Source of the DNA: Klebsiella phage ST13-OXA48phi12.2
Sequence record: MK422452.1
Reading direction: 5' to 3' (one strand)
DNA length: 34,141 nucleotides
Of the stretch, positions 13,149-19,141 are shown in pieces. Each line of letters begins with the position of its first letter. Position 1 is the first letter of the stretch. The notes under the pieces were generated by a model. That model was not told where the DNA came from. It saw only the letters and a list, made by a program, of their open reading frames with translations, and ran no database searches. Position numbers and translations under genes: made by a program.

Positions 13149-13416
13149 TCCTACTGCAACCATCAATGCGCTGTTATGTGCTGGTGTCGTTGTTACGTTG
13201 ATGTTCTATCGCCGCAGAGACTCACGACATCGTAAGTGGGTGTCGCGGCTGGCATGGCTGATAACAGTGATATACAGCTCTGTGCCGTTGGCGTATCTGT
13301 GCGGCATCTATCCCTATTCATCATGGCCCACCATTGCGGCCAATATCATGATCCTTGTTGTGCTGCTGAGCGTAAGAGGCAATGTAGCGCGGCTGGTTGA
13401 TGCACTGAGGCACTAA
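13135..13416 (+). CDS. second small lysis-cassette membrane protein (holin/antiholin-like). Start uncertain (GTG 13135)
   Basis: 93 aa with two to three hydrophobic helices, between holin and endolysin. Its stop overlaps the endolysin start. Confidence 0.4.
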   Translation: MVLNDPTATINALLCAGVVVTLMFYRRRDSRHRKWVSRLAWLITVIYSSVPLAYLCGIYPYSSWPTIAANIMILVVLLSVRGNVARLVDALRH

Positions 13417-14045
13417 TGAATCAAACACAATTCCAGAAGGCGGCTGGTATCAGCGCCGGGTTAGCTGCGCGCTGGTATCCGCATATTACAGCCGCGATGA
13501 AAGAGTTTGGCATCACTTCCGCTATCGACCAGGCAATGTTCATTGCTCAATGCGGCCATGAAAGTCTCGGGTTTAACAGGGTAGTGGAGAATTTCAACTA
13601 CAGCATCGCCGGGCTTGCTGATTTTGTTCGTTACGGCAGGTTAACGCAGGATCAGGCCAATTCCCTCGGGCGCAGCCAGTCTGAAACAGTGTTACCTCTG
13701 GAGCGCCAGCGGGCTATCGCCAATATTGTCTATAGCAAGCGGTTGGGTAACAACAAGGCAACTGATGGCTGGGTTTATCGAGGGCGCGGACTTATTCAAA
13801 TAACCGGACTTTCTAATTACAGGGACTGCGGCAGCGGTTTGAAGGTTGATCTGGTGGCACAGCCAGAATTACTGGAGCAGTCCTCGTACGCGGCCCGTAG
13901 TGCAGCGTGGTTCTATGTCTCAAAAGGTTGCTTGAAATATCCGGGTGAGCTTGTCCGGGTTACTCAGATTATCAACGGCGGACAAAACGGGATTAATAAC
14001 CGGCGCGCTCGCTTCCTGAAAGCAAAATCGGTACTGGTGGTGTGA
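13416..14045 (+). CDS. endolysin, glycoside hydrolase family 19 (chitinase-like lysozyme)
   Basis: The FIAQCGHESLGF motif is characteristic of GH19 phage endolysins. Position after the holins. Confidence 0.8.
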   Translation: MNQTQFQKAAGISAGLAARWYPHITAAMKEFGITSAIDQAMFIAQCGHESLGFNRVVENFNYSIAGLADFVRYGRLTQDQANSLGRSQSETVLPLERQRAIANIVYSKRLGNNKATDGWVYRGRGLIQITGLSNYRDCGSGLKVDLVAQPELLEQSSYAARSAAWFYVSKGCLKYPGELVRVTQIINGGQNGINNRRARFLKAKSVLVV

Positions 14046-14323
14046 TCATGGGAATCGAAGCTATCGCGGGGCTGGTGGTCGTCATCCTGGGCGCTATAGC
14101 TGGCGCGTTCGGCATCGGCCATGCTCGCGGGACCAGTAAGGCAGAAGCCAAAGCCGATCAGCAGCGTAACGAAGAGAAGGCCGCCGCCACCGTCGCCGCG
14201 GCAGAACGCCGTGCTGAAGTCACGAAAGGGGCCAGCGATGTACAGGAAGACGTTAAGCGTATGGGCGATGACGATGTTGATCGGGAGTTGCGCGAAAAGT
14301 TTACCCGCCCCGGTAGTCGTTGA
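14042..14323 (+). CDS. i-spanin (Rz-like)
   Basis: N-terminal TM helix (IAGLVVVILGAIAGAF) followed by a charged periplasmic segment. The o-spanin gene starts inside it in another frame. Confidence 0.6.
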   Translation: MIMGIEAIAGLVVVILGAIAGAFGIGHARGTSKAEAKADQQRNEEKAAATVAAAERRAEVTKGASDVQEDVKRMGDDDVDRELREKFTRPGSR

Positions 14324-14468
14324 CACGGCCTGCAGCTGGGTGCGGATCATCTACCTGACTGACCACGATATCGATGTGTTGGATAAGCAGACCAAGCGTG
14401 ACATCCTGGCGCAAAACAAATCAGTGCAGGCTAACTGCCCGCAACTAACCGGCAGGGTTACGCGATGA
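14238..14468 (+). CDS. o-spanin (Rz1-like lipoprotein). Overlapped architecture, start ATG 14238 (MYRKTLSVWAMTMLIGSC...)
   Basis: Lipobox LIGSC after a signal peptide and a proline-rich mature part. AAAGGGG RBS. The track ORF 14121.. is an N-terminally over-extended version. Confidence 0.65.
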   Translation: MYRKTLSVWAMTMLIGSCAKSLPAPVVVDTACSWVRIIYLTDHDIDVLDKQTKRDILAQNKSVQANCPQLTGRVTR

Positions 14469-14558
14469 CCAAGGCAAAGAATATTGAATTTCGACTGAGC
14501 AAACTTGAGAAAGGGCCAGACGAGAACGTTCTGGCCATCATGGAGATAAGGTCGAGAG

Positions 14559-14843
14559 CTATTGCAGGTAGCTTGCTGAAGCAGATTTCCTGCCAGGCGT
14601 TGAAAGATCGATAATGTCAGTGAAGATTGCCTTGTAGGCTTTATTTAACTTCTCAACTGTTTTCGGGGTGATATCACTCGTAGGCGGCGCGTCGATACCA
14701 TCCATTAATTCTATTTCAGCAAATTTTTTCAAAACCTGAAGGACACTCTCTTTTTGTTCTTCAGGCATCGTTTGCACAATAAAAGCAACAACGTTTCTCA
14801 GCGCCAGGAGTTGAGCATGAGTTACATAGTAATGATCGATCAT
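14559..14843 (-). CDS. 94-aa hypothetical protein at the bor-like position (opposite strand, just after the spanins). Start trimmed to ATG 14843 (MIDHYYVTHAQLL...)
   Basis: AGGAA RBS. AT-richer than flanking genes. It has no signal peptide and is not Bor-like. A divergent promoter region with repeated ATAGCGG motifs lies at 14844-14975. Confidence 0.45.
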   Translation of the reverse strand: MIDHYYVTHAQLLALRNVVAFIVQTMPEEQKESVLQVLKKFAEIELMDGIDAPPTSDITPKTVEKLNKAYKAIFTDIIDLSTPGRKSASASYLQ

Positions 14844-14975
14844 ATTTTCATTCCTGTTCTGTTGAGCTCGGCGATTTAACAGTATAGCGGAGAAATATTG
14901 CCCGCTACTCTGTGGCAACTTTCAATCGTGATGACTGGCAATAGCGGGACTTTTTATGCCCGGAACGGAGTATCT

Positions 14976-15248
14976 ATGAAAGAACGAAAACTCGTAATTG
15001 AAATTGATGACAACGCCATTGATTCAGTCATCGAAAAGGTGCGCCTGCTCAAGGATGAACTGAGAAGCCTTAACCTGCCGATCAACATCTCTGTTGCAGT
15101 GCCGGCAGCATTAAAGCCGGAAGAGGAAAGGAACACGCAGGATGCCAGAAGCGTATTCCTTAGCAACCTTGATGCCGAAATTACTCAGGCTTGGTCATCA
15201 TTGACAGAGCTTTTGAATATACGTCGCGACGCGACCTCCTCCGACTAG
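14976..15248 (+). CDS. 90-aa hypothetical protein (MKERKLVIEIDDNAIDSV...)
   Basis: GGAG lies 7 nt upstream of the ATG at 14976. The 3' end overlaps the convergent 83-aa ORF by 68 nt. Confidence 0.4.
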   Translation: MKERKLVIEIDDNAIDSVIEKVRLLKDELRSLNLPINISVAVPAALKPEEERNTQDARSVFLSNLDAEITQAWSSLTELLNIRRDATSSD

Positions 15249-15432
15249 CTGCTGCCGCTGTTTTTAGTTCATTCACGGATTTTGTGAATTTAGCCCTCAC
15301 GTTACTGGCGCTATCTGTTGGCAACTCGCTGAAGAGGCAGGATACAGCGATAGATAAGATCTCGGTCTCACCTTTGAGTGACTCCAGCTCCTCGACGATT
15401 TTCTGTAAAAGTTTCTGATTATCAACGGACAT
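15181..15432 (-). CDS. 83-aa hypothetical protein with an Arg-rich C-terminus (MSVDNQKLLQKIVEELESLK...)
   Basis: A strong TAAGGAG RBS lies 8 nt upstream of the ATG at 15432. The N-terminal half is helical. Confidence 0.5.
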   Translation of the reverse strand: MSVDNQKLLQKIVEELESLKGETEILSIAVSCLFSELPTDSASNVRAKFTKSVNELKTAAAASRRRSRRDVYSKALSMMTKPE

Positions 15433-15558
15433 TAAAACGCTCCTTACTTTTTGTGTGAAAACTCAAAGATAAGCGAGCGTTACTTTTTGCAACATCCTGA
15501 TATTCGATCAGTGCCGCCACCGTGCGGCATTTTTATTACCAGAAGTAGGAGAAGAAGC

Positions 15559-15759
15559 ATGTTGACAGTAAAAGTGATGTCGCCTGGCGGCGGCGAAGAA
15601 ATCCATAGCGGCCTGAGCGTTGGTTTCAACCCCAATCAGCAGAGTATCTCAGTGTCTGGAATGGACCAGAACGTGTTCCTGAAGCAGGGGGAGGTGGCCT
15701 ATGTGATGAACGCAAACGGCAAGACCATTTCCCGTTACGAACACAGGGCCCAGCAGTAG
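15559..15759 (+). CDS. 66-aa hypothetical small protein (MLTVKVMSPGGGEEIH...). Start trimmed to ATG 15559
   Basis: AGGAG lies 8 nt upstream. A terminator-like hairpin (TGCCGC-caccgt-GCGGCA + TTTTTATT at 15512-15537) lies just upstream of the RBS, suggesting an attenuated leader. Confidence 0.5.
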   Translation: MLTVKVMSPGGGEEIHSGLSVGFNPNQQSISVSGMDQNVFLKQGEVAYVMNANGKTISRYEHRAQQ

Positions 15760-15798
15760 GCATTACAGAAGCTCCTGAGCTAAGGGGCTTCGATAATG
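15759..15798 (+). repeat. structured repeat copy 1: GCATTACAG-aagc...gcttc-GATAATGC hairpin
   Basis: An outer stem GCATTA/TAATGC plus an inner stem GAAGC/GCTTC. It starts at the stop codon of the 66-aa ORF. Confidence 0.55.
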
Positions 15799-15827
15799 CT
15801 AAACCGAAGCATCTGCCTTAAGTGTTA

Positions 15828-15864
15828 TAAAAAACCCCGTGGAGGAAATCCCAAAGCTACGGGG
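15828..15864 (-). terminator. minus-strand rho-independent terminator (CCCCGT-18 nt-ACGGGG followed by T6 on the minus strand)
   Basis: The plus strand reads aaaaaaCCCCGTggaggaaatcccaaagctACGGGG. On the minus strand the hairpin is followed by TTTTTTAT. No annotated minus-strand gene ends here. Confidence 0.45.
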
Positions 15865-16092
15865 TGCTGTACAGCCAGCCAATGACTGATTGTAGCCACG
15901 AAGTTGGTTTATTTTCTACTGGTTGAGAATAAAACTGAGAGCCAGGAAGGCTTGAGAGTGGCTCATCCATAAGCTCACGGGTAGAACGGCAGACTTTGTC
16001 ATGGCAGAGCAAAGTCATAAGTTAGTTTAGGTAACATTTCGGATATAACAAGCGTAGCGGGGCATTCCTAATAATGGAGCACCGCAGCTAAA

Positions 16093-16131
16093 GCATTACA
16101 GGAGCCATTCTGCCGAGTGGCTTCGATAAGC
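16093..16131 (+). repeat. structured repeat copy 2: GCATTACAG-gagcca...tggctt-CGATAAGC
   Basis: Same framework as copy 1. The inner stem is changed compensatorily (GAGCCA/TGGCTT) and the outer stem is partly degraded. Confidence 0.5.
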
Positions 16132-16156
16132 TCCCCACATCGCACAGAGGTAAAAC

Positions 16157-16402
16157 ATGGCAGAGATCACACCGGCAGAACAGATTCGACTGAATCTGCT
16201 TTCCACCCTGAACTACGACACCGCGGCCGCTGCTAAGGCGATTGAGTTCGTCCAGGATAGCCAGCTCAAATATCAGCTGTTCATCCAGCAGTACAGTCGC
16301 GTGACAACTGAATCCGAAGTGGTGGCGCGGACCATCAAAGCAGTTCAGGAGTCGACCGAGGCGCTGGCGCTGTTTGATACCATCGCAGAACAGGCGAGCT
16401 AA
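16157..16402 (+). CDS. 81-aa hypothetical protein
   Basis: GAGGT RBS 7 nt upstream. It is flanked by repeat copy 2 upstream and copy 3 immediately after its stop. Confidence 0.5.
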   Translation: MAEITPAEQIRLNLLSTLNYDTAAAAKAIEFVQDSQLKYQLFIQQYSRVTTESEVVARTIKAVQESTEALALFDTIAEQAS

Positions 16403-16403
16403 G

Positions 16404-16442
16404 GCATTACAGCAGGCACTCGCTGAGCGCCTGTGATAATGC
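16404..16442 (+). repeat. structured repeat copy 3: GCATTACAG-caggc...gcctg-TGATAATGC
   Basis: The outer stem GCATTA/TAATGC is conserved. The inner stem co-varies (CAGGC/GCCTG). It is followed directly by the HNH gene RBS. Confidence 0.55.
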
Positions 16443-16457
16443 TCAAGGAGCGATTAC

Positions 16458-16799
16458 GTGAACAAAGAGCCCCGTATCTACGGCAGCAAGTGGGACCGAG
16501 AGCGTCTTATCTTCCTACGTGCGCACCCCTTGTGCGTCATGTGCCAGGAGCAAGGCAGGGTGACAGCGGCAACGGTGGTTGACCACATCATCCCGCACAA
16601 ACTGAAAGAGGCTCTGCGCTCTGGTGACAGCCAGGAAATAGCGAAGGCGCAAAAGCTTTTCTGGAGCCGGAAGAACTGGCAAGGGCTGTGCAAGCAGCAC
16701 CACGACTCAACGAAGCAGCGAATGGAGAAGCTTGGCACCGTCATCGGTTGTGATGAGAGCGGAATGCCCCTGGATCCTAACTCACATTGGTTTAAATGA
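16458..16799 (+). CDS. HNH endonuclease (terminase-associated, HK97 gp74-like)
   Basis: C-x2-C ... HH / H-x-D motifs (CVMCQ...VDHIIPHK...CKQHHD). GTG start with AAGGAG RBS. Located directly upstream of the cos/terS region, as in HNH-dependent cos phages. Confidence 0.85.
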   Translation: MNKEPRIYGSKWDRERLIFLRAHPLCVMCQEQGRVTAATVVDHIIPHKLKEALRSGDSQEIAKAQKLFWSRKNWQGLCKQHHDSTKQRMEKLGTVIGCDESGMPLDPNSHWFK

Positions 16800-16980
16800 T
16801 ATTTAATCTCATTTTTTGCGGGGGAATGATTGCAAATGAAATCATTTTGAATCAAATGATATCAATTCTCATCTGAGGGGGAGGGGCGGGTCAAAAGTTC
16901 AGAACCTCGAACCCAAATGACCGCCGCCAGTCCTTTTTGTGCACAACCGCGAAATGAAAAGTTTTTTCCGGGAGGTTCCG
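16800..16980. other. candidate cos / terminase-recognition region. Three CAAATGA direct repeats (16833, 16853, 16914), inverted repeats AATGATT/AATCATT and AAATGA-aa-TCATTT, a TGATATCA palindrome and a G-rich tract GAGGGGGAGGGGCGGG
   Basis: Dense repeats and palindromes in the 180-bp gap between HNH and terS, where HK97-like phages carry cos. The cohesive-end site itself cannot be identified from sequence alone. Confidence 0.3.
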
Positions 16981-17445
16981 ATGGCAGGACGACGCCCGAA
17001 ACCGACCCACCTCAAAGTGGTTACCGGCAACCCGGGCAAACGCAAACTTAACGACAAAGAACCATCGCCAGCGCGAGAAATACCAAGCCCTCCAGAGCAC
17101 CTCACTGACTGGGGAAAGGTGGCGTGGGGGAAGCTGACCGTGCTGCTGGATGGCATGGGCATTTTAACCATTGCCGATACGCTGGCGCTCGAACGACTCT
17201 GCGATATTTACGCCGACATTCTGCAGCTTCGCCTGACTATTGCTGACGAGGGGCGAACTTACACCGTGCAGACAGAGGGCGGGTTTTTGATTAAGGCTAA
17301 CCCGGCAGTAGCAATGTTGGCGGATGCAGATCGACGTTTTAAAAGTTACCTGGTTGAATTCGGTCTGACTCCGGCCGCCAGAACGAAGGTGAAAGTGGAT
17401 GGTGGAGAAAAAGAAGAAGACCCGCTCAACCAGTTCTTCGGTTGA
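16981..17445 (+). CDS. terminase small subunit, P27 family. Start trimmed to ATG 16981 (MAGRRPKPTHLKVVTGNPGKR...)
   Basis: Characteristic P27-family N-terminus. GGAGG lies 5 nt upstream. Confidence 0.85.
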   Translation: MAGRRPKPTHLKVVTGNPGKRKLNDKEPSPAREIPSPPEHLTDWGKVAWGKLTVLLDGMGILTIADTLALERLCDIYADILQLRLTIADEGRTYTVQTEGGFLIKANPAVAMLADADRRFKSYLVEFGLTPAARTKVKVDGGEKEEDPLNQFFG

Positions 17446-19141
17446 TCCCGCCACGCAATATGCGCGGGATGTAGACTCCGGCAAAGAAATCGCCGGTCCT
17501 GATATTAGAAACTCCTGTAAACGACATCTCAGGGATTTGGAATCCTGTCATGCTCGCGGGTTGGTATGGGATGTTGCAGCGGCGCAGCGTGCCATCGACT
17601 TTTTTGCAAAAGTACTGAAGCTCAACGGTGGTGAGCATGAGGGAAAACCCTTCAACCTGCTACCGTGGCAGTGCTTTATTGTAGGGTCGATATTCGGCTG
17701 GAAGAACTCGGATGGTTATCGTAGATTTCGCATGGTGTACGTTGAATCTGGTAAGGGTTCCGGCAAATCACCACTGGCTGGCGGAGTGGGGCTTTACTGT
17801 CTAACAGCAGATAAGGAGCCTCGTGCCGAGATATATGCAGCAGCAACGAAAAAAGACCAGGCCATGATCCTTTTTCGTGATGCTGTCGCGATGGTGGAGC
17901 AGTCCCCTGCGTTAGCACAGCGAATAAATAAATCAGGCGGTGCCGGGAAAGAGTGGAACCTTGCGTTTCTTCAGACCGGCTCATTTTTCCGGCCTATCAG
18001 TTCGGATGATGGGCAGTCAGGGCCACGCCCACACTGTGCACTGATTGACGAAATTCACGAGCACAAAAACAACCAGGTTGTGGAAATGATGCGCGCCGGG
18101 ACGAAAGGTCGTCGCCAGGCGTTGATTTTCATGATCACTAACAGCGGACACGACAAAACCAGCGTCTGCTACGACTATCACGAGTATGGGCGTAAAGTTG
18201 CCGAAGGCTCGATTGAGGATGACAGTTTCTTTTCTTTCATTTGCTCCCTGGACGAAGGAGAAGACCCATTCAAGGACGAGTCCTGCTGGAAAAAAGCAAA
18301 CCCCTCTCTTGGTCATACTTTTACCGATCGCTACCTGCGTGAGCAGGTTACTCAGGCTCGGGGGATGCCGTCGAAGGAAAGCATTGTTCGGCGGTTAAAC
18401 TTCTGTCAGTGGGTGGATGCCGATAACCCCTGGATGAGTAGCGATGTGTGGATGGGGTGCGAAGAGGACTTTGACCTGCAGGAGCTGCAGGGAGAAGAAT
18501 GTTATGGCGGCCTGGACCTTTCAGGAACTCGCGACCTTACGTCTCTGGCGCTCTTTTTCCCTAAAAAAAGAAAGCTGCTGGTGGAGTTCTGGACACCAAA
18601 AGATACTTTGCTGGATAGAGCGAAAACAGACCGCGTACCTTATGACGCATGGGAACGGGGAGGCCATATTCATACCACTCCCGGAAAGGCGGTGAAATAT
18701 GGCTTTGTTGCTGAGCGCATTGCTGATCTTTCCATGTTGTTCGATATCAAGGCGATCGCCTTCGACCAGTACCGCATAAAATATCTTGAGCCGGAATTAG
18801 AGAGCGCTTCTGTATCAGTACCGCTGATACCTCACGGGCAGGGATACTACAAGGCGCAGGATTCCGGACTGTGGATGCCTCATTCCATCGAACTTTTTGA
18901 ACAGATGCTCGATGATGGCGTAATCATTATTAAAACAAACCCCTGCCTCCGATGGAACGCTGCTTCCGCCGTAACCGAAGCCGACCAAAAAGAAAACCGC
19001 ATATTCGCCAAGAAAAAGAGTACTGGTCGAATAGATGGTGTGGTTGCGTCGGCTATGGCAATTGGTGCTGCAGAAGGTTATGAGCCTGATGATGGCGATA
19101 TAGAGGGCTTTTTTGACGATCCGATCATAGTGGGTATCTGA
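17399..19141 (+). CDS. terminase large subunit (HK97-type)
   Basis: 580 aa. AAGGTGA RBS. It contains ATPase and nuclease regions (e.g. VYVESGKGSGKS Walker A-like). It overlaps terS by 47 nt. Confidence 0.9.
   Translation: MVEKKKKTRSTSSSVDPATQYARDVDSGKEIAGPDIRNSCKRHLRDLESCHARGLVWDVAAAQRAIDFFAKVLKLNGGEHEGKPFNLLPWQCFIVGSIFGWKNSDGYRRFRMVYVESGKGSGKSPLAGGVGLYCLTADKEPRAEIYAAATKKDQAMILFRDAVAMVEQSPALAQRINKSGGAGKEWNLAFLQTGSFFRPISSDDGQSGPRPHCALIDEIHEHKNNQVVEMMRAGTKGRRQALIFMITNSGHDKTSVCYDYHEYGRKVAEGSIEDDSFFSFICSLDEGEDPFKDESCWKKANPSLGHTFTDRYLREQVTQARGMPSKESIVRRLNFCQWVDADNPWMSSDVWMGCEEDFDLQELQGEECYGGLDLSGTRDLTSLALFFPKKRKLLVEFWTPKDTLLDRAKTDRVPYDAWERGGHIHTTPGKAVKYGFVAERIADLSMLFDIKAIAFDQYRIKYLEPELESASVSVPLIPHGQGYYKAQDSGLWMPHSIELFEQMLDDGVIIIKTNPCLRWNAASAVTEADQKENRIFAKKKSTGRIDGVVASAMAIGAAEGYEPDDGDIEGFFDDPIIVGI

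Follow-up and report, generated by a model that had tools for sequence, protein, structure and literature searches.

A hairpin family in the lysis-packaging interval of temperate enterobacterial phages marks mosaic junctions and resembles T7 RNase III sites in design

Introduction

The genome of Klebsiella phage ST13-OXA48phi12.2 (record MK422452.1), of which the whole analysed stretch of 34,141 nt is called the window here, contains three similar hairpins among small genes between the lysis and the terminase genes. Why should a temperate phage repeat the same folded element in this place, and what might read it? A sequence-only reading of the window had suggested selection on secondary structure, and had listed as candidate roles processing sites for RNase III or RNase E, mRNA stabilisers, binding sites for a protein such as the adjacent HNH enzyme, and a phage-specific intergenic repeat family. 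We find that the hairpins belong to a widespread family. Beyond its wide distribution, the family is of interest because model phages and pathogen-associated ones carry it and because it links an RNA signal with the joints of genome mosaics. By analogy with R1.1 of phage T7, the hairpins may be signals for processing of the RNase III type and for the stabilisation of 3' ends, an interpretation to which we assign a probability of about one half.

Results

Fold, covariation and folding strand

The family consensus reads GCAUUA, CA, G-NNNNN-AUUC, a loop of 3-6 nt, GAGU-NNNNN-Y, GA, UAAUGC. It folds into a 6-bp lower stem, a 2x2 internal loop and a 10-bp upper stem, which is usually capped by a triloop. 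The C.A and A.G oppositions of the internal loop are kept in 86 of the 89 unique copies on which all per-position pair counts are based. The element is 39 nt long in 92 of 123 distinct contexts, and insertions and deletions are confined to the loop.

In a seed alignment of 30 sequences, 97.9% of the cells are paired, compared to 35-50% when the partners are slid out of register. Seven pairs have changed on both sides in this alignment, a count that 71 of 500 shuffles also reach; the other observed values are reached by none of the 500. A larger alignment of 86 distinct copies, which is biased towards the covariance model because the copies were aligned to it, has 97.2% of its cells paired (35-48% with slid partners). 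Here 10 of the 16 pairs have changed on both sides, with compensated changes in the lower stem among them, and none of 500 shuffles comes up to these observed values. Selection on secondary structure is therefore upheld, both by compensatory changes at 7-10 of the 16 pairs and by pairing of 97-98% versus 35-50%. Duplication of a DNA segment without compensatory change, which the sequence-only reading had named as the outcome that would speak against a structural RNA, is clearly not what is found, since double-sided changes are present. Across the family, G.U pairs outnumber A.C mismatches by 163 to 18. This excess identifies the folded strand as the sense (transcribed) strand, to which the structured element thus belongs.

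Size and distribution of the family

IMG/VR was scanned with the outer motif alone, leaving the inner sequence unconstrained, and 120 loci were returned. At least five consecutive inner pairs are present in 62 of the 90 unique pattern matches (mean 9.4, versus 0.9 in shuffles). The same pattern, run on one genome per species, gave mainly chance matches with 0-3 inner pairs, which are of use only as a negative control. Twelve genome matches have 6-10 inner pairs, and the eight of them with checked titles are all from Enterobacterales (Serratia, Citrobacter, Mangrovibacter, Leclercia, Yersinia, Kluyvera and Erwinia). This clean bimodal distribution of inner-pair counts is a natural control.

With covariance-model searches of the fetched loci, the family comprises at least 142 good copies in 101 loci, mostly viral contigs; these loci take in the window itself and three prophage loci from E. 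coli chromosomes (L001-L003). The earlier suggestion of a phage-specific intergenic repeat family is strongly supported when these related loci are included. A locus holds up to three good copies, which are never on mixed strands. Among named phages, copies are carried by phi80, mEp390, phiP27, cdtI, ST64B and Fels-1, as well as by Pectobacterium phage ZF40, Edwardsiella phage EPP-1 and many Klebsiella prophages. The presence of a copy in phi80 implies that DH10B and DH5alpha carry it, too. An identical 39-mer recurs in many unrelated contexts. A copy 100% identical to the commonest 39-mer lies at 35845-35883 of OM284015.1, a record for Elizabethkingia phage EKP1; because the other checked carriers are all Enterobacterales, the host assignment or the assembly of this record may be wrong.

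The family was discovered through an anchor on the lower-stem sequence, so the apparent invariance of this stem is partly circular and the family is probably broader than the copies found. Searches against Rfam gave no matches, either for the whole window at gathering thresholds or for 15500-16950 at E<=10. In the searchable library, no paper with the motif in this context was found, and keyword searching gave no description of it. With neither an Rfam match nor a published description found, the family is previously uncatalogued.

Genomic position and linked genes

In loci with enough flanking sequence, the genes upstream of the hairpins encode endolysins of four types, Rz/DUF2514 spanins and holins. 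Downstream on the same strand, the first large open reading frame (ORF) encodes the terminase large subunit, which belongs to at least four Pfam types (TerL in 18 cases, GpA in 6, Terminase_6 in 4-5 and Terminase_3 in 3). The element is thus specific to the lysis-packaging interval of the late operon, irrespective of the type of morphogenetic module. In 76 of 120 cases, the upstream ORF has its stop codon at -1 to +3 nt from the hairpin. Only 8 of the 123 contexts have four or more T in a row within 10 nt on the 3' side, and in 9 of the 123 the T-run of a separate terminator is located just 5' of the hairpin.

The copies are flanked by at least 30 upstream and 62 downstream gene clusters. DUF2560 is the commonest gene beside family members (33 times upstream, 25 times downstream), and an HNH gene lies downstream of a hairpin 13 times. 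A required, dedicated partnership with DUF2560 can be rejected, as the gene is present in merely 17 of the 39 well-flanked loci. The proposal that the hairpins are binding sites for the HNH enzyme is contradicted by the data and is rejected: only 16 of the same 39 loci have an adjacent HNH gene, and phi80, the Nissle prophage, Fels-1 and ZF40 are among the many carriers that do without. We consider the HNH gene as context only, not as a requirement of the hairpin element. In phi80 and the Nissle prophage, DUF2560 is missing as well. No universally linked phage gene was found among the 39 well-flanked loci, which points to a host factor acting on RNA.

Mosaic junctions at the hairpins

Comparison of the 123 contexts yields 203 pairs with a homologous flank, of which only 14 have both flanks homologous. 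In 174 of the 189 one-flank pairs, homology terminates 0-3 nt from the hairpin edge. The inner-stem type goes along with whichever flank is homologous, consistent with crossovers that fall within the conserved arms of 9 nt and 8 nt. Phi80 and the Nissle prophage, for example, have the same hairpin and downstream gene and different upstream genes. BLAST blocks that the window has in common with other phages begin at 16090/16093 and extend to 16442/16443, the outer edges of copies 2 and 3, and blocks that span the unit of hairpin, DUF2560 and hairpin stop at these edges. The hairpins mark points of gene exchange between these phages, and this coincidence with mosaic breakpoints had gone unnoticed in the sequence-only reading.

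Pairs that have only the downstream flank in common show a more variable 5' arm. Crossovers inside the hairpin were considered as the reason and rejected, because the G.U tolerance of the G/U-rich 3' arm explains the variability better. In a close relative, E. coli p10A (L001, 2778-3930), about 800 extra bases with two additional small ORFs are present between hairpin 1 and DUF2560, and no hairpin 2 was detected, an example of cassette gain or loss at hairpin sites.

The three copies in the window

All three copies (Table 1) have the same shape and fold into stable structures (-19 to -24 kcal/mol) that far exceed those of shuffled sequences (z -4.1 to -5.4). Two exact matches to the framework GCATTACAG-N15-35-GATAATGC are present in the window, and 100 shuffles contain none. 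Over the 34 kb, the family covariance model detects no copy beyond the three, which it scores with 51-57 bits on the + strand versus 17-19 bits on the reverse strand. The boundaries given earlier for the second and third copies are exact, and those of the first were off by one position.

Copy 1 combines a GCAUUA/UAAUGC lower stem and a CA/GA internal loop with an upper stem of 9 bp and a loop of 6 nt, and it has C-G at the position of the family's U.G wobble. Copy 2 has the consensus 10-bp upper stem, topped by U.G/U-A/C-G. Its 3' arm reads GATAAGC (GAUAAGC in RNA), with one T missing by a 1-nt deletion, and as a result its lower stem is bulged. Copy 3 retains lower stem and internal loop, has one A.C mismatch in the upper stem and also C-G at the wobble position. 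The conserved outer stem described before is thus intact in copies 1 and 3 and disturbed in copy 2. The inner stems do differ between copies while remaining complementary, as had been said, though they measure 9-10 bp and not 5-6 bp. The conserved 2x2 internal loop (C.A and A.G) between outer and inner stems had not been listed.

The placement of two copies at stop codons is confirmed: copy 1 begins 0 nt from the TAG (15757-15759) of a 66-aa ORF and copy 3 lies 1 nt from the TAA (16400-16402) of the DUF2560 gene. The TAA that precedes copy 2 terminates merely a 14-codon frame. Copy 2 ends 25 nt before the DUF2560 start codon, and 15 nt separate the 3' end of copy 3 from the GTG start of the HNH gene. 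No U-run follows any copy in the window, and the earlier remark that these are not classic intrinsic terminators stands.

Discussion

RNase III as the candidate reader

The RNase III sites of T7 fold as a lower stem, an internal loop, an upper stem of 9-10 bp and a small loop. The upper stem of R1.1, AAGGUCAUUC[GCAA]GAGUGGCCUU, has its top five pairs in common with the family consensus, and when the family is mapped onto the numbering of uR1.1, the register is the same as that of R1.1. Base pair 1, which adjoins the scissile bond in uR1.1, is the non-Watson-Crick A.G of the family; native R1.1 has a U.C pair there (PMC1540722). Base pair 9, position 2 of the distal box, is U.G in 64 of the 89 copies, C-G in 19, U-A in 6 and G.U in none. 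No other position has a wobble in most copies, and a hairpin selected for stability only would not be expected to keep one. Base pair 10, position 1 of the distal box, is U-A in 85 of 89 copies, and base pair 11, which closes the loop, is C-G in 62 of 89.

These features can be compared with the known requirements of the enzyme. According to Pertzev and Nicholson (2006), the minimal substrate for the RNase III of E. coli needs 11 bp from the cut to the loop (PMC1540722). The A.G at base pair 1 and the 10-bp upper stem add up to 11 positions in the family, and copy 1, with only 9 pairs in its upper stem, falls short of the family's 10. The distal box has to be U-A/U.G, and the U.G is stringent, as its replacement by G.U costs 50-fold and by A-U more than 30-fold (PMC1540722). 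The family follows this rule; within the window, U.G is present only in copy 2. Internal loops confine RNase III cutting to one strand, so that a protective 3' hairpin is left (PMC1540722), and an internal loop of non-Watson-Crick pairs is found at the predicted cleavage site in the 86 of 89 copies that retain C.A/A.G. At position 2 of the proximal box, C-G or G-C is an antideterminant, which lowers binding about 16-fold in uR1.1 (PMC1540722). The corresponding family position (10:32) is C-G in 36, G-C in 3, A-U in 30 and G.U in 17 of the 89 copies. In the window it is A-U (permissive) in copy 1, G.U in copy 2 and C-G (inhibitory in uR1.1) in copy 3.

From the observed fold, sense-strand orientation, genomic position and mosaic junctions, we infer the following scheme. 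Each hairpin is a folded part of the sense-strand late transcript, which runs from the lysis genes through the accessory genes and the HNH gene to the terminase. RNase III would recognise the upper stem of 10 bp, including its U.G/U-A distal box, and would cut at the internal loop, in ...Y-G-A-U/A-A-U-G-C (slash at the bond), with predicted sites at 15794/15795, 16127/16128 and 16437/16438. The upstream cistron would retain a protective 3' stem-loop beginning right after its stop codon, and the downstream cistron would be freed with a short leader. Since the arms are nearly invariant, they may also act as recombination linkers, that is, as homology patches of 8-9 nt by which recombining phages would swap [hairpin-gene-hairpin] cassettes. 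The hairpins may thus be a dual-purpose mark, which directs RNase III processing of the late mRNA and at the same time delimits exchangeable cassettes in an integron-like array without integrase; this wider proposal is tentative and a good deal less probable than the processing role by itself. Taken further, the proposal would have a process dedicated to recombination or copy-paste act directly on the folded element as its substrate.

Several observations weigh against RNase III. Run against the whole T7 genome, the family model matches the R1.1 upper stem best, yet with E 0.47 this match is not significant, and a T7 model built from upper stems only ranks the hairpins 2nd, 3rd (wrong strand) and 11th, with E 0.4-5; all E-values are rough, as the models were quickly calibrated. 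A covariance model of seven T7 sites with their flanks gives no match to the hairpins at E<=10. The T7 site coordinates that enter these comparisons are consistent with the T7 intergenic gaps. The antideterminant C-G or G-C at proximal-box position 2 is present in 39 of the 89 copies (about 44%). Within the window, copies 1 and 3 carry C-G instead of U.G in the distal box, copy 2 as the sole bearer of U.G has a damaged lower stem, and copy 3 has an A.C mismatch. Finally, RNase III leaves the invariance of the lower stem unexplained, although this invariance stems in part from the anchoring of the search.

Homology to the T7 RNase III sites is thus unsupported by any of the three models, and what is common to both is the architecture and the register of the distal box. 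The role in processing or stabilisation that the sequence-only reading had considered gains indirect support from this match with R1.1 and loses from the failure of the T7-derived models to retrieve the hairpins. The elements are best described as T7-RNase-III-like in design and outside that sequence family, with cleavage as a prediction drawn from the analogy.

Alternative explanations

Could another protein be the reader? The hairpins would then be RNA operators, either for a host RNA-binding protein or for a phage regulator of translation or stability, which would take the invariant lower stem together with the CA/GA internal loop and the apex as its recognition site. Such a protein would account for the very strong conservation of the lower stem and of the C.A and A.G oppositions (86/89), for the conserved U.G wobble, and for the roughly 44% of copies with the reported RNase III antideterminant. 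The genomic data are less favourable. No phage gene is universal among the carriers (DUF2560 in 17/39, HNH in 16/39, neither in phi80 and the Nissle prophage), whose endolysins and terminases moreover fall into at least four types each, and the apex matches the RNase III distal box, register included. We regard an operator for another protein as unlikely, with a minor but real share of the probability.

The position right after stop codons and the stable fold (-19 to -24 kcal/mol) would also suit a generic hairpin that protects or insulates 3'-ends and needs no dedicated factor. The uniformity of the family would then result from frequent recombination or gene conversion, as the identical 39-mer in many unrelated contexts and the junctions at the hairpin edges may suggest. 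In this case, however, Watson-Crick replacement would be expected, whereas the U.G wobble and the 2x2 loop are retained with all inner-stem types, and length and register are fixed. The probability of a purely generic hairpin appears small.

The hairpins might alternatively be folded single-stranded DNA recombination sites comparable to attC and recognised by a recombinase, which would turn the interval between lysis and terminase genes into a cassette array. The arrays of hairpin, ORF and hairpin in one orientation, with a spacing of 311-354 nt, are reminiscent of this arrangement. So are the sharp homology breaks at the hairpin edges, the conserved outer and variable yet pairing inner sequences, and the flanking by at least 30 upstream and 62 downstream gene clusters. 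Against this, the strand that folds is the sense, transcribed strand, the element measures merely 39 nt and has no GTTRRRY-type core, and neither an integrase nor another recombinase is consistently adjacent. The sharp edges are explained equally well by crossovers in the conserved arms of 8-9 nt, and the apex matches a determinant of an RNA enzyme. A DNA recombination site is therefore improbable.

An intrinsic terminator or attenuator, for which a stable stem-loop in intergenic DNA could be taken, is rejected as very improbable, because no U-run follows any copy in the window, only 8 of the 123 contexts have at least four T within 10 nt, and several copies are located directly 3' of a separate canonical terminator.

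The window and its neighbouring genes

The window is part of a temperate phage of HK97/P27 type from the Klebsiella/Escherichia group, and the features around the hairpins are collected in Table 1.

Table 1. Hairpin copies and neighbouring features, in window positions.
Feature	Position	Strand	Details
Endolysin gene	13416-14045		
Rz-like spanin gene	14042-14323		
Small genes	between spanin gene and 66-aa ORF	both	function unknown
ORF phrog_19753	14559-14918	-	in moron-like block
ORF phrog_17957	within 14559-15432	+	in moron-like block
ORF phrog_31461	15181-15432	-	in moron-like block
66-aa ORF, phrog_3909	15559-15759	+	function unknown; stop codon abuts hairpin copy 1
Hairpin copy 1	15760-15799	+	40 nt; 57.4 bits; -24.5 kcal/mol; z -5.4
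Spacer, hairpin copies 1 to 2	15800-16092		293 nt; reverse-oriented unit inside
Hairpin copy 2	16093-16131	+	39 nt; 51.1 bits; z -4.1
DUF2560 gene, phrog_571	16157-16402	+	between hairpin copies 2 and 3
Hairpin copy 3	16404-16442	+	39 nt; 52.9 bits; z -4.4
HNH endonuclease gene	16458-16799	+	GTG start; directly 3' of hairpin copy 3
P27-family small terminase gene	16939-17445		
P27-family large terminase gene	17399-19141		

The spacer between copies 1 and 2 behaves as an inserted cassette with a hairpin at each border. On its minus strand, a terminator-like hairpin (15835-15864) is followed by a T-run (15834-15829). The nucleotide sequence of the spacer is 92-100% identical in four other loci (L041, L042, L084 and L103). 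A doubtful minus-strand ORF of 53 aa (16018-15857) within it has 81-89% amino-acid identity and no match in Pfam or PHROG. As the amino-acid identity is below the nucleotide identity, the minus-strand unit may, from its sequence, be a non-coding RNA instead of a gene. The record of Klebsiella phage KP-Rio/2015 (KX856662.1) begins inside the spacer, with its position 1 at window position 15963 and a stretch of 162 nt that is 98.8% identical; either an arbitrary record start or a genome end could explain this.

Upstream, between the spanin gene and the hairpin region, 14559-15432 forms a moron-like variable block with three ORFs, all of unknown function. A terminator-like hairpin with a T-run is present on the + strand at 15510-15531, just 5' of the ribosome-binding site of the 66-aa ORF and within the presumed late operon. 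The phrog_3909 family, to which this ORF belongs, is found upstream of a hairpin 10 times in related loci.

Downstream, a repeat-rich gap separates the HNH gene from the small terminase gene. It contains, at 16779-16872, a 34-nt direct repeat (74% identity) and several AAATGATAT-rich inverted repeats. Since the annotated cos site of phiP27 lies in the same gap between HNH and small terminase genes, 16779-16872 is probably the cos and terminase-binding region.

Significance

If the RNase III interpretation is correct, temperate enterobacterial phages would gain a form of RNase III punctuation that is known mainly from T7. The carriers are, among others, phi80, phiP27 (an Stx2e phage), ST64B and Fels-1 (Salmonella prophages) and many prophages of Klebsiella. 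Individually stabilised messages of the small accessory genes 3' of the lysis cassette would be accounted for, and the mosaic joints at which accessory genes are traded would have a concrete sequence signal by which to search for them. The family would then be a candidate for a new RNA family model and for the annotation of module boundaries in prophages.

Comparison with known systems

Four known systems invite comparison. The REP/BIME elements of enterobacterial chromosomes occur in both orientations and in clusters. Like the hairpins described here, they are repeated imperfect palindromes of about 35-40 nt just 3' of genes, and they can stabilise upstream mRNA. In contrast, they have another consensus, whereas the hairpins are limited to one interval of phage genomes and to one strand per locus.

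The attC sites of integrons fold from the bottom strand of DNA, have R and L boxes (GTTRRRY) and extrahelical bases, measure 57-141 nt and need a neighbouring IntI. The similarity lies in the imperfect hairpin with conserved outer and variable but pairing inner part, and in the placement of one co-oriented copy at the 3' end of each promoterless cassette. In the phage family, the arms are GCATTACAG/GATAATGC, the sense strand folds, and the neighbours are lysis and packaging genes without an integrase.

The promoter-early stem-loop (PeSL) cassettes of T4-type phages consist of a sigma-70 promoter and a stem-loop that terminates transcription (PMC2839356). They resemble the hairpins as short conserved stem-loops that are repeated in variable regions rich in accessory genes, flank small genes of unknown function, and coincide with the boundaries of insertions, deletions and replacements, apparently via recombination between copies (PMC2839356, PMC4122927). 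The hairpins of the present family differ in being 39 nt long with an internal loop. Moreover, no promoter-like site was found on the + strand in 14300-17000, and the window copies have no U-run.

The T7 RNase III sites, finally, differ in the sequences of lower stem and internal loop, which is a symmetric 2x2 CA/GA here and an asymmetric CUCA/UAUGA in T7. The present carriers are temperate siphoviruses and myoviruses, with the element in a late operon transcribed by the host RNA polymerase; position 2 of the proximal box is C-G in many copies, and cleavage is a prediction. The similarities concern the overall design: in both cases, intergenic hairpins are distributed over a long polycistronic phage transcript, several per genome, and both are built up from a lower stem through an internal loop and an upper stem of 9-10 bp to a small loop. 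The top of the upper stem, CAUUC...GAGUG, has U.G/U-A at a distance of 9-10 bp from the loop-side edge of the internal loop, as R1.1 does. Functionally, the closest analogue of the family is the T7 set of RNase III sites, and the PeSL cassettes of T4-type phages are its closest analogue in evolutionary behaviour.

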